Of a DNA stretch of 44,894 nt, positions 1 through 44,894 are shown piece after piece. A model generated the notes under the pieces. The model was given only the letters and a program-made list of their open reading frames with translations. It was not told where the DNA came from and did not search any database. Made by a program: the position numbers and the translations under genes. The stretch's first letter is position 1. Each line of letters starts with the position of its first letter. Origin of the DNA: a virus (Duplodnaviria; Caudoviricetes); the IMG/VR virus record IMGVR_UViG_3300036803_000078, positions 1 through 44,894 of that record, one strand, 5' to 3'.

Positions 1-127
1 TGCATGGGTTTGGGCTGAAGACGACCTCGCTGGCCGAGCCCAACGTGCGCAATCTGCTCTATTCGGCCGATTCGATGGCTTGGTCGTATGCCGCGCGCCG
101 CGAAGGACGTAATCAAAACGACTGGCG
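1..127. repeat. Terminal direct repeat copy 1 (identical to 44768-44894); circular-assembly overlap
   Basis: Bases 1-127 (tgcatgggtt...actggcg) match the last 127 bases. An ORF reads through the junction. Confidence 0.95.
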
Positions 128-179
128 CGAGGCGAAAGCCTTTGTCGACAAAATCACTCGAGGAGCTCTGGCGGCCTGA
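1..179 (+). CDS. dpdA: 3' part of the DpdA/TGT-like transglycosylase (continues from 44233 across the junction)
   Basis: Frame 3 reads HGFGLKTTSLAEPNVRNLLYSADSMAWSYAARREGRNQNDWREAKAFVDKITRGALAA, stop TGA at 177-179. HGFG and SADSMAW are TGT-fold motifs. Confidence 0.75.
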   Translation, partial: HGFGLKTTSLAEPNVRNLLYSADSMAWSYAARREGRNQNDWREAKAFVDKITRGALAA

Positions 180-336
180 TCCTGCTTTCATCGGTCCGGT
201 GGCGCCGCCGATGTGGCTATGGGTGCGTGGCCGCGGCAGAGGGCGTTATTGGGAGCGATCACATTGGTGGCTATCGCGAGACGCTGAATCTGGTTAAAAC
301 CCTCATCGGGTGAACCAGATTGGGTCTTCGCGCGCC

Positions 337-3030
337 ATGACGATGGAACGCATCTTCGCGCATTTCAAAGATCAGCAAGGTCCAAACACCAGCTCATACG
401 ATCCTAGTGACCCCGACAGCTACGAAGCCTATCTTCGTTCGATGATGTCGGATAGTAAGGATTATGAAAACGCATTTTTACAAGTCGATAGAAACCAGTC
501 TCAACTTTACTACTATGGATACGAACCTTGGATTGGGCCATATAATCCAGGCTCACCTTACATAGGTGAGGATCCGAACGCTACTATTGGCGAGATTTTA
601 AACAAAGACAACACCAACCAGCCGAATCGCTCGACCTACGTCTCGACTGACGTGCGCGACGCGGTCATGTACATGCTGCCATCCCTGATCCGGCTGTTCG
701 GCGCCTCGGAGAACCCGGTCTATCTGGTGCCGCGCAGCGAGGAGGAGATCGCCTCGGCGGAACAGTCTACCGATTATATCAACTACACGATCTGGAATGA
801 TAATCCGGGTTTTTTGATCTTACACGGCGCGATCAAGGACGCGCTGACGGTCAAGACCGGTTTCGTTAAATGGTGGACCGAGGATTTCAAGGAGAAGAGG
901 CGCAAACGGTTTCTCAACATCGGCGTCGATCAGATCAAGATGCTGCTGGCCGAGGACGACACCGCCAGGCTGGTCAGCGTCGGCAGGACTGTTCAGCAGA
1001 AACTACCCCCTCCGTTGTCGCCGCCACCACCGCCTGCCCCACAGCCGAATGGCCTGCCGCCGGGTCCACTTGCTGCCGGCGGGCCACCCGCTGGTCCGCC
1101 GCCTGGCCCAATGGCCGGAGCTCCACCGCCGCAAATGCCGCCCCCTGGTCCGCCGATGCCGCCGCCTGCGGTCTACGAGCATGCGGTGATCGAATACGAG
1201 GTGTCGAAGCCGCTGATCAAGATCGCCGGGGTGCCGCCGGAAGAGATGCGGCTCGATCGCTACGCCCGCACTTGGAAGGACAGCCGGATCACCGGGCATG
1301 CGCGCATCGTCGCCGTCGATCAGTTGATCAAGATGGGCTACGACCGCGATCTCTGTCTCGAGCACATCCAGACTTCGGAAAGCCAATTCACCACCGAGCC
1401 GCAGTTGCGTAATCCGGCCCGCTTTATGGGCACCCGGATGGGCGATGGGGTGCTCTATGGTGAGTGGTATGTGAAGATCGACAAGGATGGCGACGGCATT
1501 CCCGAGCTTCGCTACATCTGCACTTTCGGCGACAATTACGAGATCGTCAACGACGAGGAGGCCAACCGGGTCAAGTTCGCCCTGTTCTCCTGCGATCCGA
1601 TCAGCCACACCATTGTTGGCGACAGTCTGGCGGATTTCACTGAGGACATTCAGCGCATCAAGACCAACATGATGCGCTCAATCCTCGACAGCGCCGCTGA
1701 AAGCATCAACCCGAAGACGGTCATCAACGAATTGGTGGTCGAGGTCGATGATGCGCTCAACGATGACCTCGGCGCGGTGATCCGTACTCGCGGCGACGTC
1801 AACAGCGCGGTGATGTACGCCAACGTTCCGTTCCTCGGCCAACAGGCGATGCCAGTGGTCGAGATGCTCAACGACCAACTGCAGCGGCGCACTGGCTTGT
1901 CGGACGCGGCCAAGGGGCTGGATCCCAAGGCGCTGCAGTCGAGCACCGAGATCGGCGTCGAGGCGGTGATCAACGGGGCGCAGGAGCGCACTGAATTGGT
2001 GGCGCGCATTCTGTGCGAAACCGGGTTCAAAGATTTGTTCACCGGGGTGTTTAACGAAATCTGCGAGAACCCCAACCAGAAGCGGACACTGAAGATCCGC
2101 GGCCAGTTTGTCCCTTACGATACTGGGACGTTCGACGCCTCGATGGCGGTCGAGGTCAACCCGAACATGGGCAAGGGGTCCGACATGGTTCGGATGATCG
2201 CCCTCAATCAGATCGACCAGAAGCAGCAGATGCTGGTGGCGCAGATGGGGCTCAACAACCCGATCTGCGGCGTCACCGAGATGTTGAACACCCAGACCGA
2301 CATGCTGGCGCTGGCCAACATCAGGGATGTGAGCCGCTATTTTAAGACCCCCAATCCGCAGCAGCTGCAGCGGATGATGTCGGCGCCGAAGCCGCCCGAT
2401 CCGATGGCGGTCGCCGCCCAGGCGCAGATCGAGAAGGTTCGCTCGGACAGCGCCAAGTCGCTAGCGCAACAACAGCTCGATCAGTCGAGGCTGATTGCCG
2501 ATACCCAATTCAAGCATCAGCAACTGCACGCCAAGACGCAACTCGACATCCAGAAGATGGACATCGACGCGCAGAAGGCGGGGCTCGACCACCACGTCCA
2601 ATTGGCGACGTTGGCCAGCAAGCTCGCCTCCGACGAGCAGGACCGGCAGCAGCAGGATCAGCAGGGCCAGGTCGACATGGCCCAGGCGCAGAACGATGCG
2701 GATGCTCAACAGCAGCAGGCGCAGCAGGCTCAGAACGATGTGCAGCTGAAGGCAGTGCAGACGCTGGCGCAGCATCATCAGAACATGGCGAAGATCCAGA
2801 GCCAGCATACTCAGGCGATGACGCAAATGGCGGCGCAGCATCATCAGGCGATGTCTGGCCTGCGTTCGCAGGAAGGCCAGACTGGGGCGAAGCTGGTCGC
2901 CGGCGCGCTCGACGGCCAGGCTGATCGAGCTCATCAGGCGCAGCAGTCTTCGCTCGACCGTGAGCATCAGGCGCTCACCACCGCGGCAACGCTGCAAACC
3001 CAGTCGAAGATCGCCAGGAAGAAGAAATGA
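337..3030 (+). CDS. Portal protein (podovirus type) with Pro-rich insertion and long Gln-rich C-terminal coiled coil; start could be 310, 337 or 343
   Basis: About 900 aa. Motifs RSTYVSTDVRDAV..MLPSL.RLF, DAL..KTGFVK.W and DGDGIPELR. Lies after the terminase module and before scaffold and capsid. Confidence 0.88.
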   Translation: MTMERIFAHFKDQQGPNTSSYDPSDPDSYEAYLRSMMSDSKDYENAFLQVDRNQSQLYYYGYEPWIGPYNPGSPYIGEDPNATIGEILNKDNTNQPNRSTYVSTDVRDAVMYMLPSLIRLFGASENPVYLVPRSEEEIASAEQSTDYINYTIWNDNPGFLILHGAIKDALTVKTGFVKWWTEDFKEKRRKRFLNIGVDQIKMLLAEDDTARLVSVGRTVQQKLPPPLSPPPPPAPQPNGLPPGPLAAGGPPAGPPPGPMAGAPPPQMPPPGPPMPPPAVYEHAVIEYEVSKPLIKIAGVPPEEMRLDRYARTWKDSRITGHARIVAVDQLIKMGYDRDLCLEHIQTSESQFTTEPQLRNPARFMGTRMGDGVLYGEWYVKIDKDGDGIPELRYICTFGDNYEIVNDEEANRVKFALFSCDPISHTIVGDSLADFTEDIQRIKTNMMRSILDSAAESINPKTVINELVVEVDDALNDDLGAVIRTRGDVNSAVMYANVPFLGQQAMPVVEMLNDQLQRRTGLSDAAKGLDPKALQSSTEIGVEAVINGAQERTELVARILCETGFKDLFTGVFNEICENPNQKRTLKIRGQFVPYDTGTFDASMAVEVNPNMGKGSDMVRMIALNQIDQKQQMLVAQMGLNNPICGVTEMLNTQTDMLALANIRDVSRYFKTPNPQQLQRMMSAPKPPDPMAVAAQAQIEKVRSDSAKSLAQQQLDQSRLIADTQFKHQQLHAKTQLDIQKMDIDAQKAGLDHHVQLATLASKLASDEQDRQQQDQQGQVDMAQAQNDADAQQQQAQQAQNDVQLKAVQTLAQHHQNMAKIQSQHTQAMTQMAAQHHQAMSGLRSQEGQTGAKLVAGALDGQADRAHQAQQSSLDREHQALTTAATLQTQSKIARKKK

Positions 3031-20203: not shown

Positions 20204-20998
20204 CTACCCGTTAGCCGCCACATGATCAGCGAAAGTATGCAGGCGAGCGTGCCGTTGACGAGAAGTCCGCGCGCCATAGCCGATCCCCATAATGGCGAAG
20301 CCTAACGCCATCATAACCCAAGTTTGCGTTTCTGGGATCACCGCGATCGCGCCTGGAACCGAGAATTCGATCTGCTTGAACTCATTCCACGCGCCGCCGT
20401 CGCCCGTCACCGAGACGATCACAGATCTAACCAAGACGCCGGGATCGACCAGCTCGTCGAAGCCGAGCACGCCGAAGTCCCGGCCGTTGGTGTTAAGGCC
20501 AGTGAAGGTATGAGACGCCGTCGTGCCGTCAGCGAAGTTGACGGTCAAATCAAGATGACCGTTGTAAGCGCCAAGATTATCGATCTGACCCCTGAACAAC
20601 TCGCCATCGAAACCGACGAACGGCGTGCCGTCTGGCAAGGTCGTCGAAGGCCCAGGCGAGAACCGATACGCGGTCAGCGTATTGGTGAGCTTGCCTGCGT
20701 CCACGCTCTTGAAGTTAGCGAACCCCGAACCGTCCGTTTCAAAGTCAGAGTTAGCCACCGACACGATATTGTCGAACGCCTGGTCGTTAGATCCCAAACT
20801 GCCGTCGATGGTCTGGGTTGTCGTCCGGGTTTTGTCGACGAACATCTTAATGTCGTCGCCATCATTCGCCTGATTATCGGACGAACAACCGGAGATCCAG
20901 ACGATGTTGCCGACCGTAATATTGCCTGAACAGGTGGCGAATGCCGGGGTTGCCCCAAGCGCCGCGAGTATGGTAGTAGCCAAAAACAAGCTTTTCAT
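20204..20998 (-). CDS. Secreted PEP-CTERM (PEPxxWA-type) sorting-domain protein 1
   Basis: Signal peptide MKSLFLATTILAALGATPAFA; acidic Thr/Gly/Asp-rich body; C-terminal IPETQTWVMMALGFAIMGIGY plus basic tail; GAGGAG RBS. Confidence 0.85.
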   Translation of the reverse strand: MKSLFLATTILAALGATPAFATCSGNITVGNIVWISGCSSDNQANDGDDIKMFVDKTRTTTQTIDGSLGSNDQAFDNIVSVANSDFETDGSGFANFKSVDAGKLTNTLTAYRFSPGPSTTLPDGTPFVGFDGELFRGQIDNLGAYNGHLDLTVNFADGTTASHTFTGLNTNGRDFGVLGFDELVDPGVLVRSVIVSVTGDGGAWNEFKQIEFSVPGAIAVIPETQTWVMMALGFAIMGIGYGARTSRQRHARLHTFADHVAANG

Positions 20999-21050: not shown

Positions 21051-21773
21051 CTAGATCGTCGCCAAACGCGAATTACGCTTACGCTTTACGCCAAACAGAG
21101 CCATCGCCCCGAAGCCAAGCGCCATCATCGCCCAGGTGCGCGGCTCGGGGATGGCGTTCAGTGTCTGCATGTTCTGATCAAACCCAGTGATCGAGCCGCC
21201 AGCGATCAGATGAAGCGAGGCGCCCTCGGTCATCGAGAATGGACCGGACGCGCTGAAGGCCGAGAGCTTGGTGCCGGAGAACGAGTCGGGATCGGTCGTC
21301 GGCGTGCCGGTGACCGTATCGAGCAGCGTGCCAGGGGTGTTGAGCGGATTGGCCCCCTGCGCGTTGTTCGGATCGGCCCAGAATTGGACCGAGGACGGCC
21401 CAGAGCCAATAGCGTTGTTGAAGGTGAGCGAACCGCTCTCCTGAACGTCGGTCACCGGCCCGGCGAAATTGGTGTCCGAGGCGAGCAGGGTGATGGTGAT
21501 TGGAGCGCCGCTCTGGTTGACGATCTGATTACTCGAAAGCTGCAACACGTCAGGAGCGCCAAAGGTTGACGTGGCGAGCGCGATCTCGACGAACGCCCCA
21601 CCGACTGTGGTGTTAATCGTCAGTAGATTGTTCGCCCCACCTGATTGGTCACACCCAAGCTGACCGTCAAAACAACTGAACGTCGAGCCGTTGGCGTTGA
21701 TGCTCAGCTGCAACCTTGCCTCCGCGGGCGCTGCGAACGCCAGGAGAGCCGTCGTTAAAAGAAGCTTATGCAT
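21051..21773 (-). CDS. Secreted PEP-CTERM (PEPxxWA-type) sorting-domain protein 2
   Basis: Signal peptide MHKLLLTTALLAFAAPAEA; Ser/Thr/Gly-rich body; C-terminal IPEPRTWAMMALGFGAMALFGVKRKR. Confidence 0.9.
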   Translation of the reverse strand: MHKLLLTTALLAFAAPAEARLQLSINANGSTFSCFDGQLGCDQSGGANNLLTINTTVGGAFVEIALATSTFGAPDVLQLSSNQIVNQSGAPITITLLASDTNFAGPVTDVQESGSLTFNNAIGSGPSSVQFWADPNNAQGANPLNTPGTLLDTVTGTPTTDPDSFSGTKLSAFSASGPFSMTEGASLHLIAGGSITGFDQNMQTLNAIPEPRTWAMMALGFGAMALFGVKRKRNSRLATI

Positions 21774-29335: not shown

Positions 29336-29531
29336 CGTCGACGAGTTCCTGCCAATCTGTTGCGGCCTTGACGTCTTTCGCCTTAACAGCGCGAAACGCC
29401 ATCCGCTCGGCGATGCGCTTCAACACCGCCAGCATCGCCATCGGCTCGTCGGCATGGATCAATTCCATCAATAAGAATTGCAGCGCGTCTTTTTCTTGCT
29501 GGGTCAGGCGGTCAAACCCTTCACCGCCCAC
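29322..29531 (-). CDS. Hypothetical protein
   Basis: 69 aa helical ORF downstream of the Acb2/Tad1-like gene. Confidence 0.5.
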   Translation of the reverse strand: MGGEGFDRLTQQEKDALQFLLMELIHADEPMAMLAVLKRIAERMAFRAVKAKDVKAATDWQELVDAIRE

Positions 29532-29728
29532 ATGACGGCTTCTTCAACCTTCGTCTTGGCGAGCGAGGCCTCACGGCCGGGCGGGACCATTTTGTCGATG
29601 ATCTTGAGAAATAAAAGACCTGTGTCTTTAATATGAACCATCACATCTTTTTCAGCATCGGTCAGCACCCGATACTGATGGCGCACATCGTTGTTGACGG
29701 TGCATTCGTCGCTCGCGCTGTCAACCAT
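29504..29728 (-). CDS. Acb2/Tad1-like helical-hairpin anti-defence (nucleotide sponge) protein
   Basis: RHQYRVLTDAEK..M..IK..G..F..II.....GRE.SLAKTK.EEAVMWAVK resembles the Acb2 YR.L..EE...M...K N-terminus and the Tad1-like TK.EEA.MW motif. Confidence 0.7.
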   Translation of the reverse strand: MVDSASDECTVNNDVRHQYRVLTDAEKDVMVHIKDTGLLFLKIIDKMVPPGREASLAKTKVEEAVMWAVKGLTA

Positions 29729-30039
29729 CAGTCGCACCGCGGCGTTTTAGAGACATGCCCGCGCGGCGTGCCTCTCAACCGACCCACGCCTTTGCTGATC
29801 GTGTTGCTCGGGCTGGTCGTCACATGCGCCTTCGAGCGGTAGGGCTCGCGTGTGTCGGAGGTCGGAGCCGGCATCACCGCGGAGCGCAGGCCGAACTCCG
29901 CGACGTCGTTGGCGATCTTGCCATGCTTTTTCGGTGGCCGCTTGGCCATCTCCGGAAAGCCGCCGATCTCGCCGCCCTGGCCATGCTTCAGCCGGCCGCC
30001 CATCGGCATGCCAAATCCTTTGCCCTTGGTGAGCCTCAT
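29728..30039 (-). CDS. Small basic, probably disordered protein
   Basis: Lys/Arg/Gly/Pro-rich; ATGA overlap. Confidence 0.55.
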   Translation of the reverse strand: MRLTKGKGFGMPMGGRLKHGQGGEIGGFPEMAKRPPKKHGKIANDVAEFGLRSAVMPAPTSDTREPYRSKAHVTTSPSNTISKGVGRLRGTPRGHVSKTPRCD

Positions 30040-40458: not shown

Positions 40459-41205
40459 TCAGCGCACCACGAAGCCGCTCGAGTCGGCCTTGGCGCGATT
40501 GCCTTTAGGCGAGAGGGCGATGACGACACCGCCTTTCGGGTCGAGGTGTCGAAGATCGTGTTCGTCGCCAGACACGACTGGCGCGCCAAGGTAGGTCGCC
40601 GGGAACGCGCCGGCGAACACGACGGCGACATTGCCGCCAGCGGCCAGGACGCGTTTGCAGTCCGCCTCGTTGGTTTCCGAGCGGCTAAAGGTTAGGTGAT
40701 AGTTGGGGGGCAGCTGGCCAGCCGCGTGCGCCAGCGCGCGGCGGACGTTCTTCGTATAGTCAACGAACTGGATATCGGGAAAGGCGGCAATGATGTTGCG
40801 ACCATCGCTGCCTTTTGCGCTTTCCCATCCAATGTCAGTTGCGCCATTCAGGCGCACGCAAAGCTTAAGGCCTTCGCGATCGGCGGCGCGTTGCGAGGCA
40901 TAAATTCCATTGATCATTTCGCGCATGAATGCAGCGCGATCGCTCATGAACAGTTTGACCTTGGCGACGCGCGACGCGCGGACCGAATTGATGGCGGTTT
41001 CCTCTTCCGCCTTTTTCACCATGCCGGCCTGGCCGGAGTACCAGCCGAGGCAAAGCGCGAGGCAGCCAGCGGAAGCATGGGGGCAAAGGTTGCCCATGCC
41101 TGCCGTTGCTGCAGGAGCCATGTAGTTAATGGCGTTCATGTAGCCATAGGCGCGTGCTTTGATCGCCTTTTGCGAGTCGAGGGAAAAGAACCGTTTGAAT
41201 TGCAT
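40459..41205 (-). CDS. GP88-family protein (radical-SAM-like Cys cluster)
   Basis: LCP.AS.GC...CL..SG, VRLNG.TDI.WE, F.DYTK, NYHLTFS.SE.N, G.NVAVVF and GDEHDLR.LD; GAGG RBS before ATG 41205. Confidence 0.8.
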   Translation of the reverse strand: MQFKRFFSLDSQKAIKARAYGYMNAINYMAPAATAGMGNLCPHASAGCLALCLGWYSGQAGMVKKAEEETAINSVRASRVAKVKLFMSDRAAFMREMINGIYASQRAADREGLKLCVRLNGATDIGWESAKGSDGRNIIAAFPDIQFVDYTKNVRRALAHAAGQLPPNYHLTFSRSETNEADCKRVLAAGGNVAVVFAGAFPATYLGAPVVSGDEHDLRHLDPKGGVVIALSPKGNRAKADSSGFVVR

Positions 41206-41301
41206 TGTGTGGCCTCTTCGGTCCACAGCCGGGTGGCTGTCAGACATGAAGCGTGATTGCTTCGTAACGCCCACGCTTCATGCGTGGGCGTTGCGCTGCA
41301 A

Positions 41302-41493
41302 TCAACCATCAATAATGATGTCGATAAGATTGGTTAGTGTGCCGTCGCATACTTTGTCGAAATGCTCGCAGCCACGTTGATTGCCGATGGTGATAAGGCG
41401 TTCAATGCATTGCTGCAATTCGACGTCTTCGCGGTTTGGATCGATCATATCCAGACGTTCAATGGCATAGGCGATAGCGGCTTCGGTGTTCAT
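41302..41493 (-). CDS. Early hypothetical protein
   Basis: AAGGAG RBS; 63 aa. Confidence 0.6.
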   Translation of the reverse strand: MNTEAAIAYAIERLDMIDPNREDVELQQCIERLITIGNQRGCEHFDKVCDGTLTNLIDIIIDG

Positions 41494-41712
41494 GAGTTCA
41501 CTCCTTGGATGCTGCAATCAAAGGCAAAGATTGTAGTAATAGACGCGCGCGTTCTCATGAGAACGTGCGCGTGCGCGCCATAGTTTTTTGTCGCTATCGG
41601 GATAGCGTGCGTAGCGGCGACACTTCACGGCTTGCAAGTAGTGCCATGTCATCAAGTGCTGGCAGTGTAACATCGGTCTCAACTCCAGCGCGCACCATGC
41701 GCGCGAGAGCCA

Positions 41713-41755
41713 CACATAGCGTGGTCTGTTCCTTATGTCAAGATCATAGTCCTAA
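41713..41755 (-). promoter_or_regulatory. First early sigma70-like promoter
   Basis: TTGACA-17 nt-TATGTG, with TTAGGACT just upstream of the -35. Confidence 0.6.
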
Positions 41756-41759
41756 TTAT

Positions 41760-42030
41760 TTCTAGGCATGCAAGTCATGCAGGTGCACTAAAGGTATACC
41801 CTAGGAAACTCACTACATGTAGTAGGTGAAATGCAGATCACACTGCGGTGTGATGCAATCAAGCAATGGTTGCATGCAAGCACAGCGTGCGACAGCACGC
41901 TGTGCTTGTGCAACCATCCGATCGAGGCGAACGCCTATTGGCGAGCCGCTCGAGCCCCTCCCACCCTAGGCTCTCCCTGACATCGGAGCCGGGGGTGTCA
42001 CCAATCGTTTTGTGTGCTAAGCTATACTAC
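41760..42030. other. Divergent non-coding control region with palindromes and hairpins (candidate origin, pac site or genome end)
   Basis: Lies between the early arm and terS. Long hairpin 41866-41917, hairpin 41837-41854, palindrome actacatgtagt 41812-41823, eight TGCA in about 145 nt. Confidence 0.5.
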
Positions 42031-42032
42031 AA

Positions 42033-42539
42033 ATGACAGATGAACATCCACATCTTACTTTAGTCGACCCAAACTATTCTACAGAGCACGATCAGGAGTT
42101 TCTACCGCTCCCTTACTACGCCTGGGACGAGCGTCCACCCACTCTGCCGCTCACTCACGACGAGGCGGCGACGGCGATCCATCTCGATCACGGCGATCTG
42201 CAGGCTGCCGCCATTCGGCTCAAGGTTCCGTTTGTTCGGCTCAACCGGCTGATCAAGCAAAGCCCGCGCCTGAAGCGCATCGTCGAGGAGGCGCTTGACG
42301 AGGTTCTTGCCCGGGCGGTTTCTCACCCAATCCAGACTTTGTTCGACCCGGCCGCCAACACCCGCGCCAAGGAGTGGGCTGCCTCTTTGGTGCTCAAGTC
42401 CAGGCTTGGTCAGGATCATCCGCTGGCTCCCAACCCGGCTGGCGCGCAGGCTCAGAGTTTGACGGTCGACACCGTGCAGCGCAGCATCACTTTCCGCTGG
42501 AGGACGGATGCAGACGACCTTCCCGACAATGGAGGCTAA
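42033..42539 (+). CDS. Probable terminase small subunit
   Basis: HTH-like AA.RLKV....L.RLI..SP.L; overlaps the terL start. Confidence 0.6.
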   Translation: MTDEHPHLTLVDPNYSTEHDQEFLPLPYYAWDERPPTLPLTHDEAATAIHLDHGDLQAAAIRLKVPFVRLNRLIKQSPRLKRIVEEALDEVLARAVSHPIQTLFDPAANTRAKEWAASLVLKSRLGQDHPLAPNPAGAQAQSLTVDTVQRSITFRWRTDADDLPDNGG

Positions 42540-43821
42540 AGCCCCCATCGATGAAATCGTCCTCCCTTACAAGCCAAGATCGTTCTTTGTCCCGCTGCAT
42601 CAGTCGGCCAAGCGCTGGAAGTTCGCCGTCTGTCATCGGCGCGCCGGCAAGACGGTGGCGTTGGCCAATGAGCTGATCGCCCGCGCTCTCAACAACCCGC
42701 GCCGCGATCCGCCGCCCAGGTACGCTTACATCGGCCCATCTTTCGACCAGACCAAGGATTTAGTGTGGGGCTACATCAAGCATTATACCGGGAACATTCC
42801 CGGCATTCGCCATCTCGAGGGCGAGCTCACTTGCGTTTTTCCTGGCGGCGCGACGATCAGGCTATATGGCGGCGCGCTGGCCTATGAGCGGATGCGCGGC
42901 ATCTATTTGGACGGCGCGGTGCTGGACGAGTACCCGCTGCTCAATCCGGCTGCCTTCACCTCGGTGGTTCGCCCCGCTCTGGCTGATTATCGCGGTTTCG
43001 CCATTGTCAGCGGCACCAGCGCTGGCGATGACCACTTTCACAAACTGAAGTTGCGGGCCGAGGACGACCCTGATTGGGCGATCTTCGACATCAAGATCGC
43101 CGACACTGGCGAGGAGGCGCTCAGCCGAGAAGAAGTCGGGGAGATGCGCAAGGACATGACGGCGGACGAGTTCGCGCGCGAGATGATGAACTCGTTCGAC
43201 GCGCCGGTCGAGGGGGCCTATTTCGCCGAGGCGCTCAACCTGCTGCAGTTGCAGGGGCGGGTGTGCAAAGTCCCGGTCGATCTCAACGCCAGCGTGCTCA
43301 CCAGTTGGGATCTGGGCATGCGGCATTTGCAGGTGGTGTGGCTGTTCCAGTTGGCCGGCCGCGAGGTGCACTGGATCGACTACATCGAAGGCTCCGGCAA
43401 GGCGCTCAGCTATTACACTGATCTTTTGGCGCTGAAATCGAAAGTCGGCAATTTCAATTACCGCGCCCATTTCCTGCCGCACGACGTCGAGGTGCGCGAG
43501 CTCACCACGGGTCAGTCCCGCAGGCACGAATTGTCCGGTTTGATGGCCGAGCCGGTGATCACCGTGCCCAATCACAACACCGACGACGGCATCACCGTCG
43601 CCCGTTCGGTGCTGGGCGTCTCATGGTTCGATCAGGACGCTTGCCGCAAGGGCTTGGCCAGGCTGCGCTCGTACCGTAAGGGAAAGAACGGCGCGGCGAT
43701 TCCCGACGAGGCCGAGGACACCGCGGACGGGTTCAGGACCGGCTGCGTTGGCATTCCGATGATCAGCTCGGTGCGTCACGGCGGCGGCCGGTTGCGGAGG
43801 CGGATCCGGGGGTTGGTTTGA
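42529..43821 (+). CDS. terL: Terminase large subunit
   Basis: HRRAGKT (Walker A), RG..LDGAVLDEY (Walker B), SGT coupling motif, SWDLG nuclease and LPHD motifs. Confidence 0.95.
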   Translation: MEAKAPIDEIVLPYKPRSFFVPLHQSAKRWKFAVCHRRAGKTVALANELIARALNNPRRDPPPRYAYIGPSFDQTKDLVWGYIKHYTGNIPGIRHLEGELTCVFPGGATIRLYGGALAYERMRGIYLDGAVLDEYPLLNPAAFTSVVRPALADYRGFAIVSGTSAGDDHFHKLKLRAEDDPDWAIFDIKIADTGEEALSREEVGEMRKDMTADEFAREMMNSFDAPVEGAYFAEALNLLQLQGRVCKVPVDLNASVLTSWDLGMRHLQVVWLFQLAGREVHWIDYIEGSGKALSYYTDLLALKSKVGNFNYRAHFLPHDVEVRELTTGQSRRHELSGLMAEPVITVPNHNTDDGITVARSVLGVSWFDQDACRKGLARLRSYRKGKNGAAIPDEAEDTADGFRTGCVGIPMISSVRHGGGRLRRRIRGLV

Positions 43822-44087
43822 TGGTCGGCAACCCCAATCTCTTCGATCAAGACGCCAGCTACCTTGCAACTTTGCCGGGACAGGCTCATTTTGCCGTCGA
43901 TAGCAACCACACATGCAGGGAGTGCGAACATTGGGCGAACCAGAGGGGCGAACGGAATCGGATCGGGCTTCTGAAGGAAGCGCGCTGCCGGAAGGCGCTG
44001 CTAAGCCTGAAGAATCCGCCGCCGATTCCGCACGACGCGACCGCGTGCCGCCATTTCGAGGCGTCGCGCAACCCGCCCCCAATCTAG
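43818..44087 (+). CDS. Small Cys-rich protein
   Basis: TCRECEHW...C.K...AC.HF; overlaps the terL stop. Confidence 0.65.
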   Translation: MMVGNPNLFDQDASYLATLPGQAHFAVDSNHTCRECEHWANQRGERNRIGLLKEARCRKALLSLKNPPPIPHDATACRHFEASRNPPPI

Positions 44088-44101
44088 ATCTTTTGGTGGA
44101 G

Positions 44102-44236
44102 ATGGATGAGCCGGAGGAAGTCGTCTTCGAGCTCCGGAAGATTGCCAGCAAGCGCACCGGCAAGGCCTGGGCGGCGGTCGCGGCCGGCCTTGCCGAACTC
44201 GAGGAGCGCCTGCGAGAGCTCAACGAGCCGGCTTGA
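44102..44236 (+). CDS. Small helical hypothetical protein (start uncertain, 44093-44102)
   Basis: MDEPEEVVFELRKIASKRTGKAWAAVAAGLAELEERLRELNEPA; its stop overlaps the TTG of the dpdA-like gene. Confidence 0.5.
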   Translation: MDEPEEVVFELRKIASKRTGKAWAAVAAGLAELEERLRELNEPA

Positions 44237-44894
44237 AGTTCTTTGTCGGACTTCACCAGCCCAGCGACGCCAAACGTCTCGACCGGGTCTTCATCAGCGC
44301 CAACCGGCTCGCCACCCGCCGAAAGCCGTTGGGGGCGCGTGAGTGGATCATGGATTCGGGAGCGTTCACCACTCTCGCGCTTCATGGCCGCTATCTGGCC
44401 CCCGCCGGGGATTATGCTGGTTTGGTTCGCCGCTTTGCTGCTCCTGGCCTGCTCGCTGCTGTAAGTCAGGATTACATGTGCGAGCCGTTTATGTTGGCCA
44501 AGACTGGTCTATCGAAGGCCGATCATCAACGGTTGACCATCGAGCGTTATGACGAGCTGCGCGCCTGCGATCTTGGCGGCGTCTATTTGATGCCGGTGTT
44601 GCAGGGCTACGAGCCGGAGGATTATGCGGAACACGCGCGTCAGTATGGCCGGCGTCTGGCTCGCGACTCCTGGGTTGGGGTCGGTTCGGTGTGCAAGCGG
44701 AACCGGTCATGGATCTCGGTGATGGACGTGCTGGTGGCGATCAAGGCCGAGCGGCCGGATTTGCGTTTGCATGGGTTTGGGCTGAAGACGACCTCGCTGG
44801 CCGAGCCCAACGTGCGCAATCTGCTCTATTCGGCCGATTCGATGGCTTGGTCGTATGCCGCGCGCCGCGAAGGACGTAATCAAAACGACTGGCG
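44233..44894 (+). CDS. dpdA: DpdA/TGT-like guanine transglycosylase, 5' part (full gene 44233-44767 plus 1-179, 237 aa)
   Basis: Hand translation from TTG 44233: MKFFVGLHQPSD..FISANRL..MDSGAFT..SQDYMCEPF..TGLS..HQRLTIERY..PVLQG..VGVGSVCKR..LHGFGLK..SADSMAWS. TGT-barrel catalytic Asp motifs are present. Confidence 0.8.
   Translation, partial: MKFFVGLHQPSDAKRLDRVFISANRLATRRKPLGAREWIMDSGAFTTLALHGRYLAPAGDYAGLVRRFAAPGLLAAVSQDYMCEPFMLAKTGLSKADHQRLTIERYDELRACDLGGVYLMPVLQGYEPEDYAEHARQYGRRLARDSWVGVGSVCKRNRSWISVMDVLVAIKAERPDLRLHGFGLKTTSLAEPNVRNLLYSADSMAWSYAARREGRNQNDW
44768..44894. repeat. Terminal direct repeat copy 2
   Basis: Identical to 1-127. Confidence 0.95.

Follow-up and report, generated by a model that had tools for sequence, protein, structure and literature searches.

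Stand-alone DpdA genes have been catalogued before. In the survey of Hutinet et al. (2019), DpdA-only viruses number 76 of 182 and make up the largest group, group 3 (PMC6884629). Sinorhizobium phage phiLM21 is entered in its Supplementary Data 1 with DpdA and the transporter YhhQ (PMC6884629). Mycobacterium phage Orion, the sole tested member of its subfamily that we found in the literature, had fewer than 6 per 10^6 nt of dPreQ0, dADG, dG+, dPreQ1 and dQ in its DNA (PMC6884629, Table 2), and its host lacks the preQ0 pathway, like other mycobacteriophage hosts (PMC6884629); phage 7-11 had 50 dADG per 10^6 nt (PMC6884629). Salvage of a host precursor was proposed for Orion in 2016 (PMC5699537). 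DNA-modifying genes beside the terminase have been described as the ParB-terminase (ParB-Tls) locus (PMC6536676; PMC4738411). Neither a stand-alone DpdA nor DNA-modifying genes beside the terminase are new (PMC6884629; PMC6536676; gene order of Rosebush), and the locus analysed here is an ordinary finding that joins the already catalogued DpdA-only group. The open-access literature yielded no report of activity for any member of the Pfam DpdA family PF23859 (subscription papers may differ), and the available text of PMC12429752 contains no DpdA terms.

The window, that is, the whole stretch of 44,894 nucleotides that was analysed, is the record IMGVR_UViG_3300036803_000078, a complete soil phage of 44.9 kb with direct terminal repeats (CheckV 100%). 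Its dpdA-like gene lies across the two ends, in the following order of features.

42033..42539, plus strand: probable terminase small subunit, by position, with a homolog preceding terL in 64 of 80 terL loci; no Pfam or PHROG match
42508..43821, plus strand: terminase large subunit, terL (phrog_2, PF03237)
43821..44087, plus strand: Cys-rich 88-aa ORF (CxxC..C..HxxxxC), found in all 18 close relatives, which have no dpdA close by
44102..44236, plus strand: small ORF of about 44 aa with a DEPE motif and an uncertain start, a resident gene of the clade
44233..44894, plus strand: dpdA-like gene, codons 1-220 (PF23859, E 2.6e-39; phrog_1279, E 6.8e-64; predicted fold)
44768..44894, no strand: terminal direct repeat, copy 2, an exact copy of 1-127
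1..127, no strand: terminal direct repeat, copy 1, inside dpdA, probably an assembly overlap
128..179, plus strand: dpdA-like gene, non-repeated 3' portion beyond the terminal repeat, encoding the final 17 residues and the stop, by homolog consensus
160..297, plus strand: mini-ORF (ELWR..FIGPVAPPMWLW), in 6 of 18 relatives, with third-position variation in alignment A3
310..3030, plus strand: SU10-type portal protein (PF23899, phrog_1216)

The original prediction held that joining the ends yields a 237-aa ORF, and this was confirmed. Comparison of the window ends showed that bases 1-127 are identical to 44768-44894. The dpdA frame opens with TTG at 44233 and meets no stop up to the window end, and its last 41 codons are the first 41 codons of the open frame 3-179; once the repeat is dropped, the ORF therefore spans 44233 to 179 across the junction and encodes 237 aa, as against 257 aa when the 127-bp repeat is kept. 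All six predicted motifs (DSGAF, QDYMCEP, PVLQG, GVGSVC, HGFG, and DSMAW) are found in it. A misassembled junction, the risk raised in the original prediction, was rejected on the ORF overlap and on two further observations. The homolog consensus carries on across the junction as NDWREAxxF, matching window bases 128-179, and a 21,465-base Logan contig from the probable source run equals 43000-44894 without differences and runs 8,565 bases beyond 44894 with no joint, support that is one-sided, partial, and not independent. The dpdA gene is thus real and intact. Its origin-spanning split is an assembly artefact, and the 127-bp repeat, judged by its length, is probably an assembler overlap.

The predicted chain of terL, Cys-rich ORF, small ORF, dpdA, and portal is correct, with the addition of the conserved mini-ORF (motif PVAPPMW, about 160-297), which the last dpdA codons overlap and which precedes the portal gene. 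Stop and start codons overlap between terL and the Cys-rich ORF (TGATG) and between the small ORF and dpdA (TTGA), where the TTG start of dpdA overlaps the upstream stop codon. A promoter scan of 41200-44894 returned two sites, both on the minus strand and at chance level, so it is gene order that speaks for late expression. By this order, dpdA is likely transcribed late with terS, terL, and portal, and the predicted late expression is supported as probable. Six-base palindromes (mean ratio 0.84) and GANTC (0.65) show ordinary site avoidance, which is uninformative on modification. In the same region, the frame of the small ORF is open far back into the Cys-rich ORF (window 43913-44236), as it is in all 18 close relatives, some of which have no ATG at its apparent start; an overlapping start or a frameshift fusion is possible. 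In the portal gene, a proline-rich stretch of about 55 aa is inserted (window 1000-1170).

The family and fold assignments made from the sequence were both borne out. The dpdA product matches PF23859 at 135.4 bits (cut-off 27) over residues 2-213, with an E-value of 2.6e-39, and PHROG 1279 with an E-value of 6.8e-64; NCBIfam gave no match. The AlphaFold model (pLDDT 92) is an eight-stranded barrel, whose top structural match among 48,161 chains is the DpdA structure 7UI4 (Z 19.0, rmsd 3.1, 209 residues aligned), followed by arcTGT (Z 18.1), bTGT (16.4), QTRT2 (15.4), and, fifth, Cap10 (13.0). Unrelated barrels scored Z 12.1 or less in the same search, and among the matches listed by Foldseek TGTs occupied 47 of 47 rows. 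A PDB sequence search with the protein or its profile returned no TGT (best E 0.23-0.26), so the link to TGTs is visible by structure only.

Matches in GenBank phages came from 407 records, 398 of them mycobacteriophages. The best is phiLM21 gp25 (YP_009221496; 57% over 220 aa); Orion gp20 (YP_655116) is 44% identical over residues 19-212 (E 3e-35) and keeps the DpdA motifs intact. The DpdAs of 9g (E 1.4e-4) and CAjan (E 1.6e-3) are weakly similar, and no similarity was found to those of Rosebush and phage 7-11. When the proteins of Orion, CAjan, 9g, and Rosebush were tested against PF23859, only Orion's matched. On a quick tree of the homologs, from which L077 and identical rows were left out, the window protein has no well-supported sister; it is 55-66% identical to homologs with all key residues intact, and its pI is 9.5 (family median 9.1). 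Judged by its sequence, the protein belongs to the Orion/phiLM21-type singleton DpdA subfamily and not to the proven DpdA1 type.

The active site of this subfamily has its own features. All 64 aligned sequences share D41, F45, D80, Q124, G125, and D202. By motif order and homolog alignment, not by residue-level superposition, these residues correspond approximately to D95, F99, D130, H181, G182, and D256 of S. Montevideo DpdA (PMC10164549). The base-reading position is Gln124 in all 64 and His in 9g, CAjan, and Rosebush. A Gln there is the bacterial TGT state (Q203; PMC5699537), and a conserved His is described for phage DpdA1 (H196; PMC6884629) and S. Montevideo (H181). The specificity loop reads G-S-V-C-K-R and that of proven DpdAs GG(L/M)V; since GSVCKR fits neither published motif, including the GGhsbb of preQ0-specific aTGT/bDpdA given in PMC10164549, the substrate cannot be read off the loop. 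The C-terminal Zn site of tRNA TGTs and bacterial DpdA (CxCxxC..H) is absent from the 237 aa.

The gene stands alone in its genome, as predicted: no folE, queD, queE, queC, queF, or arcS was found in profile searches of the complete genome with working controls. QueD (PF01242), FolE (PF01227), QueC (PF06508), radical SAM (QueE; PF04055), QueF (PF14489), and DUF5591 (ArcS; PF17884) had no match, nor had YhhQ, and the positive controls matched in each case. Rosebush QueC, QueD, QueE, and FolE likewise found no match in the window and 108 loci. Among 50 homolog-bearing phage genomes (the 49 longest of the 80 apart from one, plus L060), QueC was found in none, a mini-QueD lies directly upstream of dpdA in three, and YhhQ was found by Pfam in one, phiLM21 itself; by tblastn, 4 of 108 loci have a YhhQ-like gene close to dpdA, with one further weak match. 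These neighbours tie the subfamily to 7-deazaguanines. The mini-QueD-like genes (L054:7603-7980, L066:7610-7957, and L080:1060-1353) encode about 100-125 aa with an HGH motif, mostly without the QueD Cys, in genomes without queC. In bacteria, 14 of 27 genomes with a homolog have QueC over the cut-off; the other 13 include many incomplete MAGs. Many of the 28 bacterial genome loci with a homolog are alphaproteobacterial, and the phiLM21 host is reported to belong to those that have the Q pathway. Use of host preQ0 or preQ1 by the window protein, as originally proposed, is plausible.

The reading that we favour, and hold to be somewhat better than an even chance, is that an intact Orion/phiLM21-type DpdA, a minimal TGT barrel, swaps some guanines of the phage DNA for host-made 7-deazaguanine, as an anti-defence mark. 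In its favour are the family and fold matches, the invariant active-site residues and basic pI, phiLM21 as nearest named homolog, the YhhQ and mini-QueD neighbours, the bacterial genomes that pair a homolog with QueC, and the insert, described below, at a site that is empty in relatives. We infer its substrate, DNA target, timing, and benefit as follows. By analogy with DpdA and TGT chemistry (PMC10164549; PMC5699537), D202 would attack C1' of a flipped guanosine, D41 would serve as acid/base, and D80, Q124, and G125 would read the base edge. A free host base, most likely preQ0 and possibly preQ1 or CDG, would then be joined through the Asp-linked intermediate after replication. The enzyme would act late because its gene landed in the terS-terL-portal transcript, not through a link to the packaging motor. 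Modification would probably be sparse and dependent on the host pathway, and the benefit would be protection against restriction or other defence. Several observations stand against this reading: the level in Orion DNA, below 6 per 10^6 nt, albeit from a host without the pathway (PMC6884629); the predominance of mycobacteriophages among the phage matches (398 of 407), whose hosts lack the pathway (PMC6884629) although Orion's motifs are intact; a pocket unlike that of proven DpdAs, with Gln for His and GSVCKR for GG(L/M)V; the weak similarity to the DpdAs of CAjan and 9g, with none to those of Rosebush and phage 7-11; and the 13 of 27 bacterial genomes, many of them incomplete MAGs, in which QueC did not pass the cut-off.

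A rival reading is a diverged Orion-type enzyme, which would insert a purine outside the 2019 LC-MS panel (unsubstituted 7-deazaguanine or another base, for example) or remove guanine from DNA. The invariant Q124 and the G-S-V-C-K-R loop differ from proven DpdAs, and the family is kept in 398 mycobacteriophage records. Hutinet et al. themselves raise possible functional divergence of singleton DpdAs (PMC6884629), and dDG and three further bases were first found only in 2023 (PMC10516641). However, having YhhQ and QueD as neighbours suggests that the precursors are ordinary ones, and Gln, as the bacterial TGT state (Q203; PMC5699537), is compatible with preQ bases. We consider such divergence possible but unlikely.

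The position of the gene was compared with that in relatives at two levels. A search with the window's terL gave 80 loci, and no dpdA lies 5 kb or less from the gene in any of them. In the 18 close relatives (terL identity 74-86%), the Cys-rich ORF is retained throughout, and so, judged by eye, is the small ORF (DEPE motif in 18 of 18 translations; 3 of 18 by tblastn). PF23859 was found in 0 of these 18 records, of which only three are at least 90% complete and in which no positive-control match was obtained. The small ORF is followed immediately by the mini-ORF in L090 and L091, and the window's dpdA sits exactly between the two, which identifies it as a gene-sized insert. It likely entered the packaging operon as a single gene, at a variable site, and appears to have displaced the native start of the mini-ORF. 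In the 80 homolog loci, dpdA has neither the Cys-rich ORF nor the small ORF close by. Because both are kept in 18 of 18 relatives without dpdA at the locus, they are not accessory factors as had been proposed; on the sequence evidence they are residents of the phage clade rather than DpdA partners. Atlas matches of the Cys-rich ORF are unnamed viral clusters only. DpdM was also considered for this ORF and rejected, as it has no CxxxCxxCC motif and no family match.

The gap between terL and portal ranges from 498 to 3,179 bases in the close relatives. L089 has a C5 methylase there, L095 a Mom-family gene, and L101 a Tad2-like gene, each one junction upstream of the dpdA site, and HNH genes occupy the gap in L092, L103, and L160. 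The relatives with an empty site also show that DNA-marking and anti-defence genes settle in the terminase-portal interval. Between terS and terL, L089 and L095 also carry an unnamed PHROG 24928 gene (L089:4447-4998 and L095:3417-4696; 35% identical), which we take, by eye, to be Mom/GNAT-like. It is preceded in L095 by a radical SAM gene, with the Mom-family gene after terL; L089 has the C5 methylase. An unrecognised DNA-modification cassette at the terminase locus of these two relatives is possible.

Neighbourhoods of the dpdA homologs were scanned through 120 ORFs of at least 330 aa lying no more than 3.5 kb from dpdA in 63 of 80 loci. Replication, recombination, nucleotide, or methylase genes were near in 37 of 80 loci and terL was within 3.5 kb in 8 of 80, two loci being in both tallies, near-duplicates being counted separately, and some contigs being cut. 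A conserved synteny of terL, Cys-rich ORF, dpdA, and portal was accordingly not upheld: none of the 80 terL relatives has it, and the homologs lie mostly in replication modules. The terL-adjacent homologs are scattered on the quick tree, implying at least three changes. In an SU10-type relative, L060 (L060:4928-10054; portal 60% and terL 57%), terL is directly preceded by a different dpdA and the portal is transcribed oppositely, probably an independent arrival next to the terminase. In one clade (L021, L026, L028, L029, L031, and L033), a 122-aa protein with a signal-peptide-like start and no Pfam or PHROG match is encoded directly upstream of dpdA. GP88 homologs lie no more than 3 kb from dpdA in several loci, for example L005, L018, L022, and L028; the window has a GP88-family gene (PF17338) at 40459-41274 on the minus strand.

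These arrangements bear on a broader proposal, in which the Orion-type 'DpdA' is misnamed. It would be a separate minimal transglycosylase with its own pocket, which either makes an unrecognised DNA base or disarms a deazaguanine-based defence, and would form one of several interchangeable terminase-side cassettes (C5 methylase, Mom-like, Tad2-like) that mark progeny DNA only. If true, this would account for the retention of the gene in about 400 mycobacteriophage records despite hosts without a preQ0 pathway; we regard it as unlikely.

Counter-defence away from DNA, in which a 7-deazaguanine metabolite or a deazaguanylated defence protein is bound or depleted, or host tRNA is the target, seems distinctly unlikely. 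The TGT homolog Cap10 acts on a deazaguanylated defence protein and, like the window protein, lacks the Zn site (bioRxiv 2025.04.06.647259). It is the fifth structural match, the same interval of L101 holds an anti-defence gene, and Orion DNA is unmodified (PMC6884629). However, DpdA is the closer structure (Z 19 versus 13), the protein is basic (pI 9.5), which fits binding to nucleic acid, the parts with which TGTs hold Zn and tRNA are absent, and the neighbours are DNA-metabolism genes.

It is more doubtful still that dpdA is an intact passenger, inactive or unexpressed in the window phage. The gene is missing from the 18 close relatives examined, starts with TTG, and has a third-position T of 0.23 versus 0.15 in terL or portal, but its key residues are intact at 55-66% identity and its start overlaps the upstream stop codon. 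Coupling of modification to packaging, in which DpdA and the two small proteins would act at the terminase or portal on DNA being packaged, finds some encouragement in translational coupling within terL...portal, the eight homologs near terL (directly upstream in L028 and L060) in at least three separate places on the tree, the Rosebush run ParB-dpdA-queCDE-folE-terL, and the proposed ParB-terminase locus (PMC6536676; PMC4738411), but is highly improbable given the terL relatives and close relatives counted above (0 of 80; PF23859 in 0 of 18, only three at least 90% complete and with no positive-control match), the small ORFs that persist without dpdA and are never near its homologs, the 37 loci beside replication, recombination, or methylase genes, and no ParB among the 78 ORFs scanned, and this part of the original prediction is unsupported.

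The question of substrate belongs to the Orion-type family rather than to this locus. At 237 aa and with no Zn domain, the window protein is a very small TGT-fold candidate that lends itself to simple assays. Should it act on DNA unaided, it would provide a compact base-exchange tool and settle the role of DpdA-only phages. Two minus-strand proteins of the window (20204-20998 and 21051-21773) end in PEP-CTERM/PEPxxWA-like sorting motifs, with PF07589 over the cut-off for the second and weak for the first, which suggests display on the host surface via exosortase. At 29504-29737 on the minus strand lies an Acb2/Tad1 hairpin-domain protein (PF24729, E 2e-18), by its sequence a probable anti-CBASS/Thoeris sponge.

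Set against known systems, the locus resembles the ParB-Tls arrangement in that a DNA-modifying gene adjoins terL and that relatives have methylase and Mom-like genes there. It differs in that terL precedes the gene, the site has no conserved occupant, and ParB is lacking (no Pfam or PHROG match among the 78 window ORFs scanned, some of which have no family match at all). S. Montevideo DpdA (7UI4), from the bacterial Dpd restriction-modification system, is the best structural match, and by motif order its three Asp are apparently conserved; it differs in its 413 residues, insertions, Zn site, and need for DpdB/ATP. No dpdB or dpdC family was matched by Pfam or PHROG among the 78 window ORFs, and PADLOC gave no match for four window proteins. 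The DpdA1 enzymes of 9g, CAjan, and Rosebush share the TGT barrel and the DSGAF, HxxG, and DS motifs, and the Rosebush dpdA also stands in one run with terL. They are only about 25% identical, do not match PF23859, are 306-385 aa long, accompany folE/queCDE, and have His and GG(L/M)V where the window protein has Gln and GSVC. The closest likeness is to phiLM21 and Orion, which share the family, the motifs, a similar length, and a genome without preQ0 genes. In phiLM21, dpdA lies in an early/replication region beside a methylase and yhhQ, which the window lacks; in Orion it lies antisense among tail genes. In the window, dpdA is co-oriented between terL and portal, in a phage with SU10-type portal, capsid, and adaptor genes.
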